Notes: generated from the sequence alone by a model not told the origin. A stretch of DNA of 32,364 nucleotides from Candidatus Uhrbacteria bacterium RIFOXYB2_FULL_45_11 (GCA_001791715.1 MGFD01000030.1:9246-41609); one strand, 5' to 3'. Counted from the stretch's first letter, positions 1,727 through 27,279 are shown. Numbers and translations are program-made.

Positions 1727-1808
1727 AGGGGAAGGTTTGAAATGTCGGAAACCTGCCTGCCGGCAGGCAGGGGTCGGAGAGGTTTGAATGTCGGAAAGGT
1801 CGAGGTGT
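1727..1808 (-). repeat. leader element H1: 9-nt units (TCGGAAAGG / TTTGAAATG family) flanking a perfect 20-nt palindrome, directly abutting the ATG
   Basis: The + strand reads cat|AGGGGAAGG|TTTGAAATG|TCGGAAACC, then CCTGCCTGCCGGCAGGCAGG (1752-1771), then TCGGAGAGG|TTTGAATG|TCGGAAAGG|TCGAGGTGT. The same units occur at 25646-25681. Confidence 0.8.
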
Positions 1809-1814
1809 GAGGGG

Positions 1815-1820
1815 ATTATA
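1815..1820 (-). promoter_or_regulatory. candidate -10 box (TATAAT) for the DHFR-like gene
   Basis: The reverse complement of attata at 1815-1820 is a perfect TATAAT. A weak -35 (GTGCAA) lies 17 nt upstream. This would make H1 the whole 5' UTR. Confidence 0.35.
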
Positions 1821-1884
1821 TAGCAATAAATCTGAGTTTGCACGAGGGTTTTTTGAATGGTGGTAATCAGGCTAACATGGGAAA

Positions 1885-3615: not shown

Positions 3616-3687
3616 GGAGAGTGTGAGATCGGAGGTCTCGCCCAACATCCCGCTTCGCGGTCTGTCCAAACCTTCGGTTTGGCGCCA
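3616..3687 (+). repeat. R2: copy 2 of the structured tRNA-like repeat
   Basis: Identical to R1 except for one A/G change and a 3-nt CTC indel. It ends in GCCA, and similarity to the R1 trailer continues to about 3710. Confidence 0.85.
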
Positions 3688-3729
3688 TACAAAAACACCG
3701 AACGCAAATGTTCGGTGTTTCTGTATGGC
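3684..3729. terminator. 20-bp-stem palindromic hairpin shared by convergent R2 and tRNA-Ser(UGA)
   Basis: Arms at 3684-3703 and 3710-3729 pair at 19 of 20 positions; the loop is GCAAAT. U-runs follow on both strands. The stem includes the GCCA 3' end of the tRNA. Confidence 0.7.
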
Positions 3730-3814
3730 GGAGAGGGCGAGATTCGAACTCGCGGAAGCTATTAACTTCGACAGTTTTCAAGACTGTTGCCATCAACCAC
3801 TCGGCCACCTCTCC
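3726..3814 (-). tRNA. tRNA-Ser (anticodon UGA), long variable arm, CCA encoded
   Basis: Reverse complement: GGAGAGGTGGCCGAGTGGTTGATGGCAACAGTCTTGAAAACTGTCGAAGTTAATAGCTTCCGCGAGTTCGAATCTCGCCCTCTCCGCCA. Anticodon loop CTTGAAA. Confidence 0.9.
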
Positions 3815-4058: not shown

Positions 4059-4134
4059 ATTGGCCAAAGGCCACCCGAAACTTCAACAGATCATCAACTC
4101 TCTTCGCGTCACCCTTCGCCAAGGCTTCGGGTGA

Positions 4135-4179
4135 CACCCTACACTTCAACAATGGTAAACACTGTTGAAGTGTAGGGTG
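4135..4179 (-). terminator. perfect 17-bp hairpin directly after tRNA-Ser(GCU), overlapping its terminal CA
   Basis: caccctacacttcaaca (4135-4151) pairs with tgttgaagtgtagggtg (4163-4179), 17 of 17 positions, with an 11-nt loop. A second hairpin, gtcaccc/gggtgac, lies at 4108-4135. Confidence 0.6.
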
Positions 4180-4272
4180 GCGGAGAGAGAGGGATTTGAA
4201 CCCTCGCGCCGGTTTTAAAGCCGACCTAGGAGATTAGCAATCTCCCCCCTTCAGCCTCTTGGGTATCTCTCC
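4178..4272 (-). tRNA. tRNA-Ser (anticodon GCU), long variable arm, CCA encoded
   Basis: Reverse complement: GGAGAGATACCCAAGAGGCTGAAGGGGGGAGATTGCTAATCTCCTAGGTCGGCTTTAAAACCGGCGCGAGGGTTCAAATCCCTCTCTCTCCGCCA. Confidence 0.9.
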
Positions 4273-7282: not shown

Positions 7283-8254
7283 ATGTCTGACTTTGTTGAA
7301 CAAACACGTTTGCGATTCGAACAGATGTTTCGTGGTCATCGGACAAGGTTGTCAGAGGTAGCCACACGTTGGCGTCCGGAAATGGATCAGCTCGCACATC
7401 GTGTTGTGGAACTTGTTTGTATGGATGGTCGGATCTCTCCGATCATGCCGTATGGTCTTGCTCCTATTGTTCCAATTGCAGGTGGGGTTCCGCAAGATCA
7501 GAATAAGCCCTATCAGGAATGGCTCAAGCGAAATGTTGGACGCGCAAAAAAAGAAAAGGGCGGACTCATTCAGCTTGTGCAACTTCACACAGAATGCGCA
7601 GCGTTTGATCGAAGTACCGATTTGGCAATTCGGGCCGCGACTCATTTTGACAAACGTGTTCATAAAGCCTATGCGGATGATGTGCACAACATCATTCTGC
7701 TCTATAACGTAATTCATGGAGGTGTGAGTATCTTTGAATCAACGCAACAGCGATGGTATGAACTACTCTCGCTCGATCGTGACCAGAAGCCAAATCCGGA
7801 TTCCGGTTTTTTCAAAGCCGGTTCCATGGCGGCAGGAAATGAAGACCTTGTTTCAGATCTCGCACGCATTGCATACATGGCACGCTTCACACGACAAATA
7901 GCTGGTCGTGTTGTGCAAAAACATCGTGAGCTCGGTATCGTCGCCGGAGACATCACTGTTCCGTGGCGAGGTAATGCAGATTTTCTTAGTTATCGCATGG
8001 ACTTGGTCGATGACACAAGTCACGTACTTCAGTTAAAGCGCGCTGCTGCTGTTGTGCGCGGTGCGCTCAACTCAAGTGGAAAATCTTGTGAACCAATTTG
8101 TATTTTTGTTGTGCGTCGCACAGAAGCCGCGCAAGAAGATGGAAAAAATTCGGTTCAGAAGATTCAAAAGCTTATTGCATCCGTTCTTCCTCAGGAAGAA
8201 GTTGTGCTTTTTCCGTATCACATAACGAAGGCAGATCATCTTGTGGCAGAATAG
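7283..8254 (+). CDS. hypothetical protein with a beta-carbonic-anhydrase-like CxDxR...HxxC motif pair
   Basis: GGAGG lies 7 nt before ATG 7283 (the ORF-track start at 7166 was rejected). VCMDGR places C46/D48/R50 and LHTECAAF places H102/C105, a C-to-H spacing of 56 aa. Confidence 0.6.
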   Translation: MSDFVEQTRLRFEQMFRGHRTRLSEVATRWRPEMDQLAHRVVELVCMDGRISPIMPYGLAPIVPIAGGVPQDQNKPYQEWLKRNVGRAKKEKGGLIQLVQLHTECAAFDRSTDLAIRAATHFDKRVHKAYADDVHNIILLYNVIHGGVSIFESTQQRWYELLSLDRDQKPNPDSGFFKAGSMAAGNEDLVSDLARIAYMARFTRQIAGRVVQKHRELGIVAGDITVPWRGNADFLSYRMDLVDDTSHVLQLKRAAAVVRGALNSSGKSCEPICIFVVRRTEAAQEDGKNSVQKIQKLIASVLPQEEVVLFPYHITKADHLVAE

Positions 8255-9428: not shown

Positions 9429-9506
9429 GTGTCATTCCGACCGACCAAAGGGAGCGGAGGAATCTCGCGTGTACGAGAGATCCCTCGGCTGCGCTCGGGA
9501 TGACAA
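9429..9506 (+). repeat. P1: GTCAT...ATGAC palindromic element directly upstream of the next start codon
   Basis: It shares tgtcat..., atctcgcgtKtacgWgagatccctcggctgcgct and cgggatgaca with 27163-27272. Outer arms gtcattccga / ctcgggatgac. Confidence 0.8.
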
Positions 9507-9514
9507 AGTAACGT

Positions 9515-18505: not shown

Positions 18506-19133
18506 TCGCTTTTGTTAAATCATTCGCAGAAGGTACGCCCACAATGGATGTGCTGTTGATAAAAAGCGTTGGGGTTGCGAGGATTCCCAAATTCAGAGCC
18601 TCCTGAAGATTTTTTTGCACAATGGGTAATGTATCTTTTGAAGAAAGACATTTTGAGAACGTTGTTTCATTTAATCCAAGTTCTGTGCCAATTTGTGTAA
18701 ATTGTGTTTCGGATAAGTATGTTTGTCGATCAAACAAGGCAGATGCATATTCCCAAAATTTTCCTTGGCGCGCGGCACAGTGTGCGGCAACGGATGCGCT
18801 TGTTGCGTTTGGGTGTGCGGAATCGTTTGGCATGTCTTTCCAAACAAAACGTACATCATTTGGAAACGTCATGAGAGCGACATCGATAATCGGGTTGAGT
18901 TGTTTACAGGCCGCACACTCAAAATCGGAATAGACAACAAGAGTGACTTTTGCCTTTGGAGCTCCGCGTATCGGATCAACAAACGTGACGCTTGGGGTTT
19001 TTAGTGTGGCAGAATTTGTGTTCGTTATTTTTGGTTTTGGAAGCGGAATGGGTTGTGTGCGAATGAAAAAAAACACAAAAACCATGACGGTTAAAAAGCC
19101 AATCACGAGATATGCAAGGAGACGATCGCGCAT
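18477..19133 (-). CDS. DsbA-family thiol:disulfide oxidoreductase, membrane-anchored
   Basis: From ATG 19133: MRDRLLAYLVIGFLTVMVFVFFF (TM segment), FECAACKQ (CxxC) and a thioredoxin-fold remainder. The upstream 27 codons in the ORF track read through element H2. Confidence 0.8.
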   Translation of the reverse strand: MRDRLLAYLVIGFLTVMVFVFFFIRTQPIPLPKPKITNTNSATLKTPSVTFVDPIRGAPKAKVTLVVYSDFECAACKQLNPIIDVALMTFPNDVRFVWKDMPNDSAHPNATSASVAAHCAARQGKFWEYASALFDRQTYLSETQFTQIGTELGLNETTFSKCLSSKDTLPIVQKNLQEALNLGILATPTLFINSTSIVGVPSANDLTKAIADELAAQK

Positions 19134-19255
19134 AGGAATGTTTGAGGTACAGATTACAGATAAGACATACAGATATACAGATGGGAAAAAAGCAGACGTG
19201 CTCTCCGCCTTCATTTGTATATCTGTATGCCGCCATTTGTAATCTGTACCTCAAA
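19134..19255 (-). repeat. intercistronic element H2: TACAGAT-type heptamer arrays forming a long inverted repeat, abutting the dsbA-like ATG
   Basis: Arms at 19141-19184 and 19212-19255. An outer 18-bp and an inner 13-bp perfect helix are separated by an internal loop. Junction on the mRNA strand: CATTCCT-ATG. Confidence 0.8.
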
Positions 19256-19258
19256 TGT

Positions 19259-20506
19259 TTACTTCAACTTAATAAGCTTAAGCTGTCCGGAAAAGGCGTC
19301 TGTGTAATATAAGGAGGAACCGTCTGCGCTTACGGAAAGATTTGACATGGTTGTGTCTCTTTCTGGAATGGCGACAACTTCGTTGCGACCGTTTGTGAGA
19401 TTGAGTTTATAAAGCGTGTCCGGACGGTTTTCATAAAGGGTTCTTTGTAATCCGGCATTGCTTGGAAGGTTTTGCGGTACGGCACAGTAGACAATTGTTT
19501 CTGAACTCCATGTACATTTATCAACCCATGTATTGATGCCAAGGCTGTGTCGATTTTCTCCCATACTTGCCGATGTTCCGTTCACAAGCCACAAGAGTGG
19601 CTTGCCTTGTGAATAATCGCCATAAACGGAATAGAGAATCGTTTTTCCGCTCGGGGACCAGGAAGGGGAAAAACCAAATCCCTCTACCACAAGTCCTTTG
19701 AAATTTTCTTGATTTTTTCCAACCGGATAAATCACCTTTGTATCAAATCCAGATGTGCTGTTGTTTCCGACAATGGATGACGTGTCGGCAAAGGCGATCA
19801 CTTGATCGTTTGGAGACCAGCTGACATCTACCTTGTCCGCATTTTCTCCGAGGGCCTGAACGGAAGTGACGTTTGAACCGTTGTCGTTTGAAAGTACGAG
19901 CCAGCGATTGTTTGGATCGAGCGCAAGGCTTTTTGCGATCAAGTTATCTGATGACGGAGAAAATTCTACGTCTTCCCAGTGTTTTGGAAGCGTGACTTGT
20001 GATTGTGTTTGAAAATTGTAAACGATTTTTGAATCATCCGGAAAAACCATGACTGCTTTTTCTGCATCGCGATTCCATTCAACACTTTGAACGTTTGGAA
20101 ATGTTTGATTTGAAAGTTTTACGATATTTCCATCTTTATCGATGGTATAAAAAAATCCATCATCTTCATTATAAAAATTGATTTTGTTTCCGTCTTTGCT
20201 CAGTGTTGTATTTTGAACCGGGGCTGATGTGAGCGTGATGGTTTTTGTGATTCCTCCATCAGCAATACTTGCAGCCTCTGGAAGCGTACCGTCATTTGTT
20301 GTACTTAATCCGTTTCCTGATCCAGGAGTTCCGTCAAGAGAAGGGGTAAGAGAACCTGTTGGGGTCTCTGTTGTTGAGACGGGTTCGCCGTTAGACGTTG
20401 TGCTTGGACTTTCCGTAAAAAAGACAATATACATGGCAAGACCAATCACAATGACGGACCCAATGAACCCAATGATGAGTAAGATGCGTTTTGGACGTTC
20501 TTGCAT
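19259..20506 (-). CDS. TolB-like PD40 beta-propeller repeat protein with an N-terminal TM anchor
   Basis: WSPNDQVIAF, WSPSGKTILY and FSPSSDNLIA repeats; an N-terminal hydrophobic helix. Confidence 0.7.
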   Translation of the reverse strand: MQERPKRILLIIGFIGSVIVIGLAMYIVFFTESPSTTSNGEPVSTTETPTGSLTPSLDGTPGSGNGLSTTNDGTLPEAASIADGGITKTITLTSAPVQNTTLSKDGNKINFYNEDDGFFYTIDKDGNIVKLSNQTFPNVQSVEWNRDAEKAVMVFPDDSKIVYNFQTQSQVTLPKHWEDVEFSPSSDNLIAKSLALDPNNRWLVLSNDNGSNVTSVQALGENADKVDVSWSPNDQVIAFADTSSIVGNNSTSGFDTKVIYPVGKNQENFKGLVVEGFGFSPSWSPSGKTILYSVYGDYSQGKPLLWLVNGTSASMGENRHSLGINTWVDKCTWSSETIVYCAVPQNLPSNAGLQRTLYENRPDTLYKLNLTNGRNEVVAIPERDTTMSNLSVSADGSSLYYTDAFSGQLKLIKLK

Positions 20507-23951: not shown

Positions 23952-23967
23952 AAAGGTGGAAATATTG

Positions 23968-24070
23968 GTAGATACGGATTACAGATGAATACAGATAGGG
24001 ATGACGTATCTGAAAAACGTTTTTCGGAACCGAATATCTCCATCTGTATTCATCTGTAATCCGTATCTAC
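23968..24070 (-). repeat. intercistronic element H3: perfect 29-bp inverted repeat between htpX and clpC
   Basis: gtagatacggattacagatgaatacagat (23968-23996) pairs with its exact complement at 24042-24070. The 45-nt spacer holds the 14-nt palindrome gaaaaacgtttttc (24012-24025). Confidence 0.9.
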
Positions 24071-24076
24071 ACACGT

Positions 24077-24973: not shown

Positions 24974-25081
24974 AGGGGGAAGTAGAAAGTAGAGAGTAGA
25001 AAGTAGAGAGGAGATAGAAACGTTTTTTAAAATAGCTGCACCAACTAAAACCTTTCTACTTTCTACTTTTCCCTTTCTACT
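24974..25081 (-). repeat. intercistronic element H4: GTAGARA heptamer arrays in inverted orientation, filling the lemA-htpX spacer
   Basis: cat|AGGGGGA|AGTAGAA|AGTAGAG|AGTAGAA|AGTAGAG|AGG. The 31-nt arms at 24981-25011 and 25051-25081 pair at 26 of 31 positions. The spacer contains GAAACGTTTTTT. Confidence 0.85.
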
Positions 25082-25084
25082 TTT

Positions 25085-25636: not shown

Positions 25637-25743
25637 AGGGGAATGTTGGAAAGGTTTGAAATGTCGGAAAGGTCGGAAAGGAAACGTTGTAAAAACGTTT
25701 TGGATTACCTTTCAAACATTTCAGACCTTTCCGACCTTTCAGA
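25637..25743 (-). repeat. leader element H5: four plus four inverted 9-nt units (TCGGAAAGG family), abutting the lemA ATG
   Basis: AGGGGAATG|TTGGAAAGG|TTTGAAATG|TCGGAAAGG|TCGGAAAGG, then a 26-nt spacer (AAACGTT-GTAAA-AACGTTT), then CCTTTCAAA|CATTTCAGA|CCTTTCCGA|CCTTTCAGA. Confidence 0.85.
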
Positions 25744-25760
25744 CTAAGTATTACGTTTAA

Positions 25761-25789
25761 ATTCTACGAAATTTACAAGCTTTCGTCAA
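25761..25789 (-). promoter_or_regulatory. sigma70-like promoter for lemA (TTGACG-17 nt-TAGAAT)
   Basis: Minus strand: TTGACG (25789-25784), a 17-nt spacer, TAGAAT (25766-25761). It places H5 inside the transcribed leader. Confidence 0.5.
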
Positions 25790-27162: not shown

Positions 27163-27272
27163 TGTCATCTTGAGCGACCGTTTTATGTCTAGTCGAAAGA
27201 TCTCGCGTTTACGTGAGATCCCTCGGCTGCGCTAAGAGGCTGCTTCGCAGTGCGCTCCGCTCGGGATGACAC
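27163..27272 (+). repeat. P2: GTCAT...ATGAC palindromic element directly upstream of tyrS
   Basis: It shares both ends and a 33-nt core with P1 and carries an extra 26-nt internal segment (aagaggctgcttcgcagtgcgctccg). It ends 8 nt before the tyrS ATG. Confidence 0.8.
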
Positions 27273-27279
27273 AAAATTT

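Follow-up and report, generated by a model that had tools for sequence, protein, structure and literature searches.

What fills the long spacer between two adjacent genes of a Candidatus Uhrbacteria (Patescibacteria/CPR) population from aquifer groundwater, and does it serve the gene that follows it? The spacer (125 nt, 19134-19258, with the - strand as the sense strand) lies within a stretch of 32,364 nucleotides, here called the window, and separates a tolB-like gene from a dsbA-like gene. CPR genomes are tiny and tightly packed, and they are thought to be poor in repetitive DNA. An earlier note on this DNA had described the spacer as an inverted array of TACAGAT repeats, and had suggested that it and similar arrays before lemA, htpX and clpC might form a post-transcriptional regulon of envelope and protein quality control. 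We find that the spacer, termed E1, belongs to a family of palindromic repeats which is dispersed and polymorphic, occupies operon spacers of Patescibacteria and is tied to no class of genes.

All genes between 13415 and 25636 lie on the - strand, in the order lemA, htpX, clpC, a gene for a 301-aa protein without assigned function, the PD40 tolB-like gene and the DsbA/thioredoxin-like gene; a VanY-like peptidase and then a T4SS-pilin-domain protein follow downstream on the same strand. Proteins of the window are also found on Rifle-type metagenome contigs, and their closest named relatives are Uhrbacteria MAGs. The public call of the dsbA-like gene is 245 aa long and starts at an ATG at 19214, within the E1 hairpin, whereas in an alignment to nine relatives the conserved N-terminus starts at the ATG at 19133. 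Since all nine alignments begin there, the 27 additional residues of the public call (MKAESTSAFFPSVYLYVLSVICTSNIP, window 19134-19214, - strand) are element-derived, and they are common to no relative. The start codon given in the earlier note is thus the correct one. Coordinates of the features are collected in the table.

Table. Features of the window discussed in the text, with positions counted from its first nucleotide.
Feature	Position	Strand	Remark
tolB-like (PD40) stop codon (tta on + strand)	19259-19261	-	3 nt from E1 stem
dsbA-like true start codon ('cat' on + strand)	19131-19133	-	N-terminus conserved in relatives
dsbA-like gene, 218 aa	18477-19133	-	start at ATG 19133
E1, whole tolB-like/dsbA-like spacer, 125 nt	19134-19258	-	
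E1 5' arm (sense): TTTGAGG-TACAGAT-TACAAAT-GGCGGCA-TACAGAT-A-TACAAAT-G	19212-19255	-	four heptads, start-to-start 7/14/8
E1 3' arm (sense): four ATCTGTA heptads, CCTCAAA at end	19141-19183	-	spacing 7/13/8
E1 apex, non-palindromic	19184-19211	-	weak terminator-like mini-hairpin and T6 run (AGGCGGAGAGCACGTCT GCTTTTTT)
E1 gene-proximal tail CATTCCT, immediately 5' of ATG	19134-19140	-	conserved in E1-subfamily copies elsewhere
E2, htpX-to-clpC spacer	23966-24072	-	TACAGAT family, arm spacing 7/10, apex GAAAAACGTTTTTC
E3, lemA-to-htpX spacer	24974-25084	-	AAGTAGA/CTTTCTA heptad arms, apex motif AAACGTTT
E4, whole lemA 5' UTR	25642-25746	-	GGAAAGGTC nonamer arms, two unrelated alleles in population
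lemA promoter TTGACG-17-TAGAAT	25761-25789	-	kept across all Uhrbacteria examined
Direct-only array of E4-type units, leader of gene at ATG 1726	1727-1830	-	

The + strand of the spacer reads exactly as first described, and a 115-nt imperfect palindrome (19141-19255) makes up nearly all of it. The outer helix (19141-19158 with 19238-19255) is perfect over 18 bp, and the inner arms (19166-19183 with 19212-19229) pair over 18 nt with one mismatch, that is, 13 perfect bp and 4 more beyond the mismatch, which bears out the two helices of 18 and 13 bp that had been reported. The arms hold four heptads each, six of the eight being exact TACAGAT and two TACAAAT. As the earlier note stated, 3 nt separate the hairpin from the upstream stop codon; on the other side 7 nt (AGGAATG on the + strand) lie between it and the ATG. 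As a possible target-site duplication, AAACAT(T) is present at both ends of E1, but it overlaps with the stem and belongs to the conserved tail.

Folded as - strand RNA, E1 reaches -64.3 kcal/mol (reported range -63 to -64), compared with -28.8 +/- 3.6 in 200 dinucleotide shuffles, none of which was as stable (z = -9.7). The window contains 15 copies of TACAGAT where 1.9 are expected, a count of 15 being reached in none of 100 shuffles, and 10 of the 15 occurrences sit in E1 and in E2, the element between htpX and clpC. E1 is identical, or one apex SNP apart, in nine independent assemblies and is therefore no assembly artefact; that SNP, the sole strain SNP of E1, falls in the apex. Rfam scans at gathering and E-value thresholds brought only tRNAs above threshold, and the sub-threshold matches of the elements were to eukaryotic miRNA-precursor models, i.e., generic long hairpins.

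Three further hairpins of ~105 nt with tandem-repeat arms (E2, E3 and E4) each occupy a neighbouring spacer, and the relatedness of E1 to the other arrays of the window, which had been claimed, is confirmed: E1 and E2 share TACAGAT; the apices of E2, E3 and E4 have the motif AAACGTTT in common, accounting for three of its five occurrences in the window; and E1 to E4 all have one layout and fill their spacers. E4 stands directly downstream of the conserved lemA promoter and hence constitutes the complete lemA 5' UTR. Its unit (GGTCnGAAA, period 9) recalls a CtsR heptad operator and CTGTATATCTGT recalls a LexA box, but spacing and symmetry misfit in both cases.

Other palindromes and arrays were observed in the window. 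In the direct-only array of 1727-1830 the units are those of the E4 3' arm (...TTTCCGACATTTCAAACCTTCCCCT-ATG) and surround a GC palindrome, CCTGCCTGCCGGCAGGCAGG; a promoter-like box TTGCTATATAAT and a terminator (~1885-1915) lie upstream. A second, unrelated class of palindrome (GTCATCCTGAG...CGAAGGATCTC / GAGATCCCTCGGCTGCGCTCGGGATGAC) is present at 9475-9514 and 27225-27279, in the lemA and htpX leaders of the related loci L013 and L014, and at 8004-8553 of contig L233, in the same sorts of leader and spacer as the array hairpins. Both tRNA-Ser genes are bordered at the 3' end by a near-perfect hairpin of 20-21 bp with a loop of 5-6 nt (3683-3730 and 4135-4179), and a longer inverted pair spans 4070-4181.

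E1 was rejected as a Rho-independent terminator, as its 3' arm runs into CATTCCTATG and only a weak 5-bp stem with a T6 run is present, in the apex. The promoter/terminator scan found no promoter in E1, the lemA promoter being the one strong promoter of the region. No U run follows any of the elements, and members of the family sit within ribosomal operons; the elements are therefore almost certainly transcribed through.

Comparison with relatives shows that the genes are stable and the spacers are not. The PGM-lemA-htpX-clpC-tolB-like-dsbA-like synteny is conserved in 15 Uhrbacteria-like loci, whereas the spacers are not conserved. At the site of E1 the tolB-to-dsbA spacer is 1-8 nt long in six more distant Uhrbacteria genomes, and in L014 it holds another array hairpin, with an apex and 3' arm like those of E3. 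In L013 and L015 it holds a canonical terminator (AAAAATCGATGC...GCATCGATTTTTT) and then TGCTATAAT, a terminator/promoter pair (L013 15300-15385, L015 15650-15765) which splits the operon in place of a hairpin element. The htpX and lemA spacers of the relatives contain array hairpins, direct arrays, GTCATCCTGAG...GGATCTC palindromes, or nothing. Even within one population two unrelated E4 alleles occur across 10 kb with only two SNPs; allele B, built of GAGATGCTN/GCCTCTCNN nonamers, is present in seven contigs.

A scan of public metagenome contigs with the pattern TACAGAT-N0-3-TACAGAT-N20-50-ATCTGTA yielded at least 120 loci. Family members were defined by three to four TACAGAT-type heptads per arm (at most one mismatch) in inverted orientation, with start-to-start spacings of 7-8, 10-14 and 8 within the arm. 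Among the matches listed, 60 of 124 matched places form hairpins with at least two heptads per arm, and most arms have four heptads, spaced (7,10,8), (8,10,8) or (7,11,8), of which the first two are commonest. E1 shows every trait of the family: the heptads, the spacing, copies at non-orthologous sites, and a spacer filled to both ends. Its own spacing, (7,13,8)/(7,14,8), equals that of the copies L138, L176 and L196, which also share its outer stem TTGAGG...CCTCAA, its heptads and its tail, although the flanking genes differ (the genes behind them are an amino-acid kinase, a pseudouridine synthase and one of no assigned function). Elements measure ~90-125 bp with a variable apex. In the case of viral contigs, 36 pattern matches were found, and the four entries that passed the hairpin filter represent three loci (L207 on both strands). 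The open-access papers searched contained no TACAGAT dimer strings and no description of MITEs or array hairpins in CPR; the family of heptad-array palindromes is widespread and apparently so far undescribed.

Copies at unrelated loci resemble each other over their whole length. In the E2 subfamily (L083, L143 and L165) 28 of the 30 pairs in the arms do not vary and the apex AAAACGTTT is retained between unrelated flanks; across E2-like copies conservation is higher in the arms than in the apex. L084 has two near-identical copies in adjacent spacers. In the E1 and E2 subfamilies alike, the central part (linkers and apex) can face either way between the tails. Half of the copies have this segment inverted against the conserved outer tails (L138, L176 and L196 compared with E1, and L083 with E2). 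A flipped centre is what recombination between the arms would yield, so that the pattern is consistent with a flip-flop.

The genes behind family members are of many kinds: RecX, L5, L22, L2, S7, NusB, GatA, a class II aldolase, a radical-SAM protein, a NiFe hydrogenase subunit, ATP synthase delta, PGI, a glycosyltransferase, TatD, a nucleotidyl transferase and a pseudouridine synthase. Among the matches listed there is no bias toward envelope or protein-quality-control genes. The regulon proposed in the earlier note is therefore not upheld: downstream genes show no functional enrichment, an outcome that the note itself had named as refuting, with unrelated housekeeping genes following the elements elsewhere, and lemA, htpX, clpC and the dsbA-like gene make up one syntenic cluster and not four independent associations.

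These data also bear on the related proposal that the elements are a post-transcriptional switch (a thermosensor or attenuator) for those four genes. All four window elements do precede such genes, and ~7 of 16 array hairpins in htpX-centred CPR loci flank htpX, an enrichment confounded by the sampling of these loci around htpX. The four genes stand in one syntenic block, the same genes occur in relatives without elements, and family members precede unrelated housekeeping genes. An RNA thermometer of the ROSE or fourU type was rejected for E1 on structural grounds: an SD site that could be masked is lacking, 7 nt separate the AUG from the stem, and physiological temperatures cannot melt a helix of -63 kcal/mol. 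We rank this switch last among the alternatives and regard it as very improbable.

Family members sit between a stop and a start codon, and for 16 metagenome members between co-directional genes, among the matches listed, most distances on either side are -6 to 20 nt. In L233 the medians are 4 nt from stop to stem and 5 nt from stem to start, and metagenome members are similar. Initiation in these genomes seldom involves a recognisable SD site, which is seen in 1 of 25 window genes (an SD-like tetramer), 1 of 27 ribosomal genes of L233 and 1 of 27 of L238. The 15 nt before starts are strongly depleted in G, with 7-16% across the three gene sets (7% at -15 to -1 in the window). 'CCT ATG' is the commonest pre-ATG context in the window. 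We also observed that 'CCCCT ATG' or 'CCT ATG' recurs in Uhrbacteria leaders; it may be a lineage-specific initiation context.

This context qualifies a further claim, namely that the gene-proximal junction of E1 resembles that of lemA and so links the copies. The tail does travel with the E1 subfamily to unrelated loci: in four of four copies the outer stem CCTCAA(A/G) leads, toward the gene, into C(A/G)TTC(C/T)(C/T)-(A/G)TG. Its general G-free, C/T-rich and SD-less flavour, however, is the genome-wide context before ATG.

Near-complete occupation was seen in a ribosomal-protein super-operon (the S12-to-Adk genes; L233, L234 and L235, from one genome), compared with that of a relative (L238/L239) whose L2 is 81% identical. 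One protein search placed the carrier of L112/L233, a Parcubacteria genome, in the Patescibacteria, with an L2 81% identical to a protein of a 'Patescibacteria group bacterium' and 70% identical to a Portnoybacteria protein. In L233, 18 of 20 tested spacers contain array hairpins that fold at z <= -2.3; the median spacer is 96.5 nt, versus 12.5 nt in L238/L239, and the spacers total 3535 nt versus 701 nt. The unit families there include TACAGAT, TACGAAT (in the same four-heptad layout), CAAAATG/AAATCAAAA, CATATAA and others; within an element, the eight heptads are all of one variant. Arrays of the TACGAAT type were seen in loci of Uhrbacteria, Nealsonbacteria and Moranbacteria as well.

Occupation of nearly every spacer of a highly expressed operon would be expected if the elements were selected as punctuation between cistrons, with dsRNA stems that serve as RNase III or other processing sites and hairpins that protect the resulting ends; operon transcripts would be cut into separately stable mRNAs, and the elements maintained for that function. 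RNase III sites of phage T7 and the Correia and ERIC elements are precedents. The stems of 40-50 bp with internal loops would suit such a role, the E4 hairpin would form the extreme 5' end of the lemA mRNA, and the orientation bias described below is suggestive. Close relatives, however, do with spacers of 3-30 nt and no hairpins, and no strand asymmetry of G-U versus A-C pairs is seen. We rank this explanation first among the alternatives and hold it to be possible, on the unlikely side.

The strand comparison was made with 27 elements of known orientation. Sense and antisense folds did not differ in stability (11 versus 16, Wilcoxon p = 0.45) and G-U counts were equal, so this comparison yields no positive evidence that selection acts on the mRNA structure and not just on a DNA palindrome. 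A purine-rich 5' arm with a pyrimidine-rich 3' arm was rejected as a strand indicator, since palindromes show it on both strands. Orientation markers do show some bias: of 10 informative copies, several of them from one genome, 9 have an A-run linker in the sense 3' arm, and subfamily tails are all oriented alike relative to transcription. This suggests that only insertions with suitable stop and leader sides survive, or that insertion itself is oriented, and it hints at more than neutral tolerance.

The absence of an RNA strand signal would also fit an array that acts as DNA, i.e., as an operator- or centromere-like site at which a cooperative DNA-binding protein could occupy the two arms flanking a bendable centre. 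Binding to repeated short boxes is known from the WATCACW heptads of the omega repressor (pSM19035) and the parS boxes of P1 ParB. In favour of this reading, heptad sequence and spacing are conserved over distant CPR lineages and the arms are better conserved than the apex. The many unit sequences that coexist within a genome, and indeed within a single operon, would nevertheless call for many binding proteins; the positions follow stop and start codons and not promoters; and repression sites at each cistron inside ribosomal operons make little sense. This reading, second in our ranking, appears improbable.

Turnover between strains, as with E4 in the window, is also seen in the super-operon, and it speaks for a mobile family. 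The element between SecY and Adk belongs to different families in L233 and L234, having been swapped between strains. In the L14-to-L24 spacer (L233 14301-14425) the two differ by a 90-nt indel flanked by a 13-nt direct repeat, CGCGGAACTACGC; either the stretch between two repeats was deleted, or an insertion brought a duplication with it. Within the coding region of rplC (L3; L233 ~7571-7615) one strain has AAAATTAAAAATGAAAAATT... and the other AAAGTTC five times. Such strain-variable, in-frame arrays within rplC imply that array turnover also takes place outside spacers.

In the third-ranked alternative the elements would not be mobile but a by-product of slippage of a leader motif in place, followed by inverted template switching, their likeness being convergent. 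The flanking repeat of the 90-nt indel, the in-frame polymorphism of rplC, the direct-only arrays in leaders and the variation of unit families from site to site all agree with slippage. It would not be expected to produce a fixed four-heptad layout with non-repetitive linkers, nor near-identical whole elements, apex and tails included, at unrelated loci and in different genomes. We give it little credence.

The reading that we favour, at about an even chance, is that E1 is a MITE- or foldback-like copy that colonises operon spacers and 5' UTRs of SD-less Patescibacteria and is tolerated there, and that it is no gene-specific regulator. E1 has the attributes of a MITE (terminal inverted repeats, small size, no ORF, multiple copies), and the family behaves like selfish DNA, with many non-orthologous sites, presence/absence differences, swapped alleles and a flipping centre. 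We infer from this distribution that it spread as a MITE or foldback-like element; the distribution is the sole ground for mobility because no target-site duplication was found at E2, and no autonomous element or transposase with matching ends in the window or the loci compared with it.

Tolerance would follow from the way the hairpin is placed. E1 would have inserted at a site where more distant Uhrbacteria have a spacer of just 1-8 nt and, having no terminator tail, would become part of the tolB-like/dsbA-like mRNA. Its RNA is predicted to form a helix of ~50 bp, the foot of which would bring the stop codon (3 nt away) and the AUG (7 nt away) together and hold them within ~10 nt. A ribosome terminating on tolB-like would open the lower stem and free the G-free leader CAUUCCU-AUG, which the element's own 3' tail supplies. 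SD-less translation of the dsbA-like gene would thus remain coupled to tolB-like, and coupling kept through the hairpin foot would explain why insertions are tolerated even between ribosomal-protein genes.

Some observations fit a MITE or foldback origin less well. The existence of direct-only arrays counts against it, and several unit families that share one layout, with uniform heptads in each element, go beyond a simple model of a transposase and its inverted repeats and leave room for a sequence-specific factor. Conservation of the heptad across CPR classes could reflect such a factor in the host. A lineage-wide system might then exist in which a sequence-specific factor writes or propagates arrays from a short template, and the hairpins are obligatory punctuation between cistrons, for coupling or processing, at nearly every junction. 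An array-writing factor would account for the uniform heptad variant of each element and for the same heptads across CPR classes; we consider the system as a whole quite unlikely.

Whichever reading applies, in one lineage the palindrome family adds ~2.8 kb to a ribosomal-protein operon of 16 kb, and elements turn over between strains that are 2 SNPs per 10 kb apart. If they are merely tolerated, the mRNA hairpin makes an insertion invisible to SD-less coupled translation; if they are used, they represent a new level at which operon expression is controlled, in a major branch of the bacteria that is uncultivated. In practice, the elements lead to wrong start-codon calls in public protein sets, as in the 245-aa DsbA-like protein, and can act as hypervariable strain markers. 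As a caution, a local cluster of repeats should not be taken for a regulon.

MITE-like intergenic palindromes within operons are known as Correia/NEMIS in Neisseria, ERIC/IRU in enterobacteria, RUP/BOX in pneumococcus and RPE in Rickettsia. Like the present elements, these are ~100-150 bp long, multi-copy and free of ORFs, with long inverted arms; they lie in spacers near start codons, are co-transcribed, form long hairpins and are polymorphic between strains. They differ in having one genome-wide consensus and arms that are not tandem short repeats, whereas the heptad-array elements have arms of four heptads, several unit families per layout and near-saturation of an essential operon, with no target-site duplication or transposase known. 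Foldback (FB) elements, as generally described, are similarly inverted repeats of tandem short subrepeats around a variable central loop. They are, however, kilobase-sized and eukaryotic, with transposase-bearing partners; the heptad-array elements are ~100 bp, bacterial and confined to stop-to-start spacers.

A match in position is provided by the TAACTGA heptamer direct repeats of Beggiatoaceae, Cyanobacteria and Bacteroidetes (MacGregor 2015, PMC4679880), which contain stop codons in all frames in one orientation and have a distribution that suggests horizontal spread; we count both properties as further likeness. Both these repeats and the cyanobacterial STRR heptamers are tandem heptamers a few nt upstream of starts, in spacers without an RBS, and the TAACTGA repeats also occur inside ribosomal-protein operons and before genes of no particular class (PMC4679880). 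The TAACTGA arrays are direct only (with one indirect case), predicted to be unstructured and built of a single unit (PMC4679880), in contrast to heptad arrays paired with an inverted copy, in a fixed four-unit layout with linkers and with many unit types. E1 was accordingly rejected as a TAACTGA-type direct repeat: its position fits, but it has inverted, hairpin-forming pairs and another unit.

REP/BIME elements with a GTAG or CGTC tag (Di Nocera 2013, PMC3733652) are likewise extragenic palindromes in operon spacers, and many family members end in ...TCTGTAG / CTACAGA... with GTAG outermost, which recalls the REP tag. REPs are, however, single stem-loops of 20-40 bp mobilised by RAYT transposases, and E1, with 115 nt and the ends GAGGTAC/GTACCTC lacking GTAG, was rejected as one of them; no RAYT gene was seen. 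CRISPR and TIGR-Tas arrays were rejected as well, the elements being solitary and without variable spacers and the window without a Nop or Cas gene. Set against the known bacterial intergenic palindromic repeats, what is new and unusual here is the heptad-array architecture and the host range.
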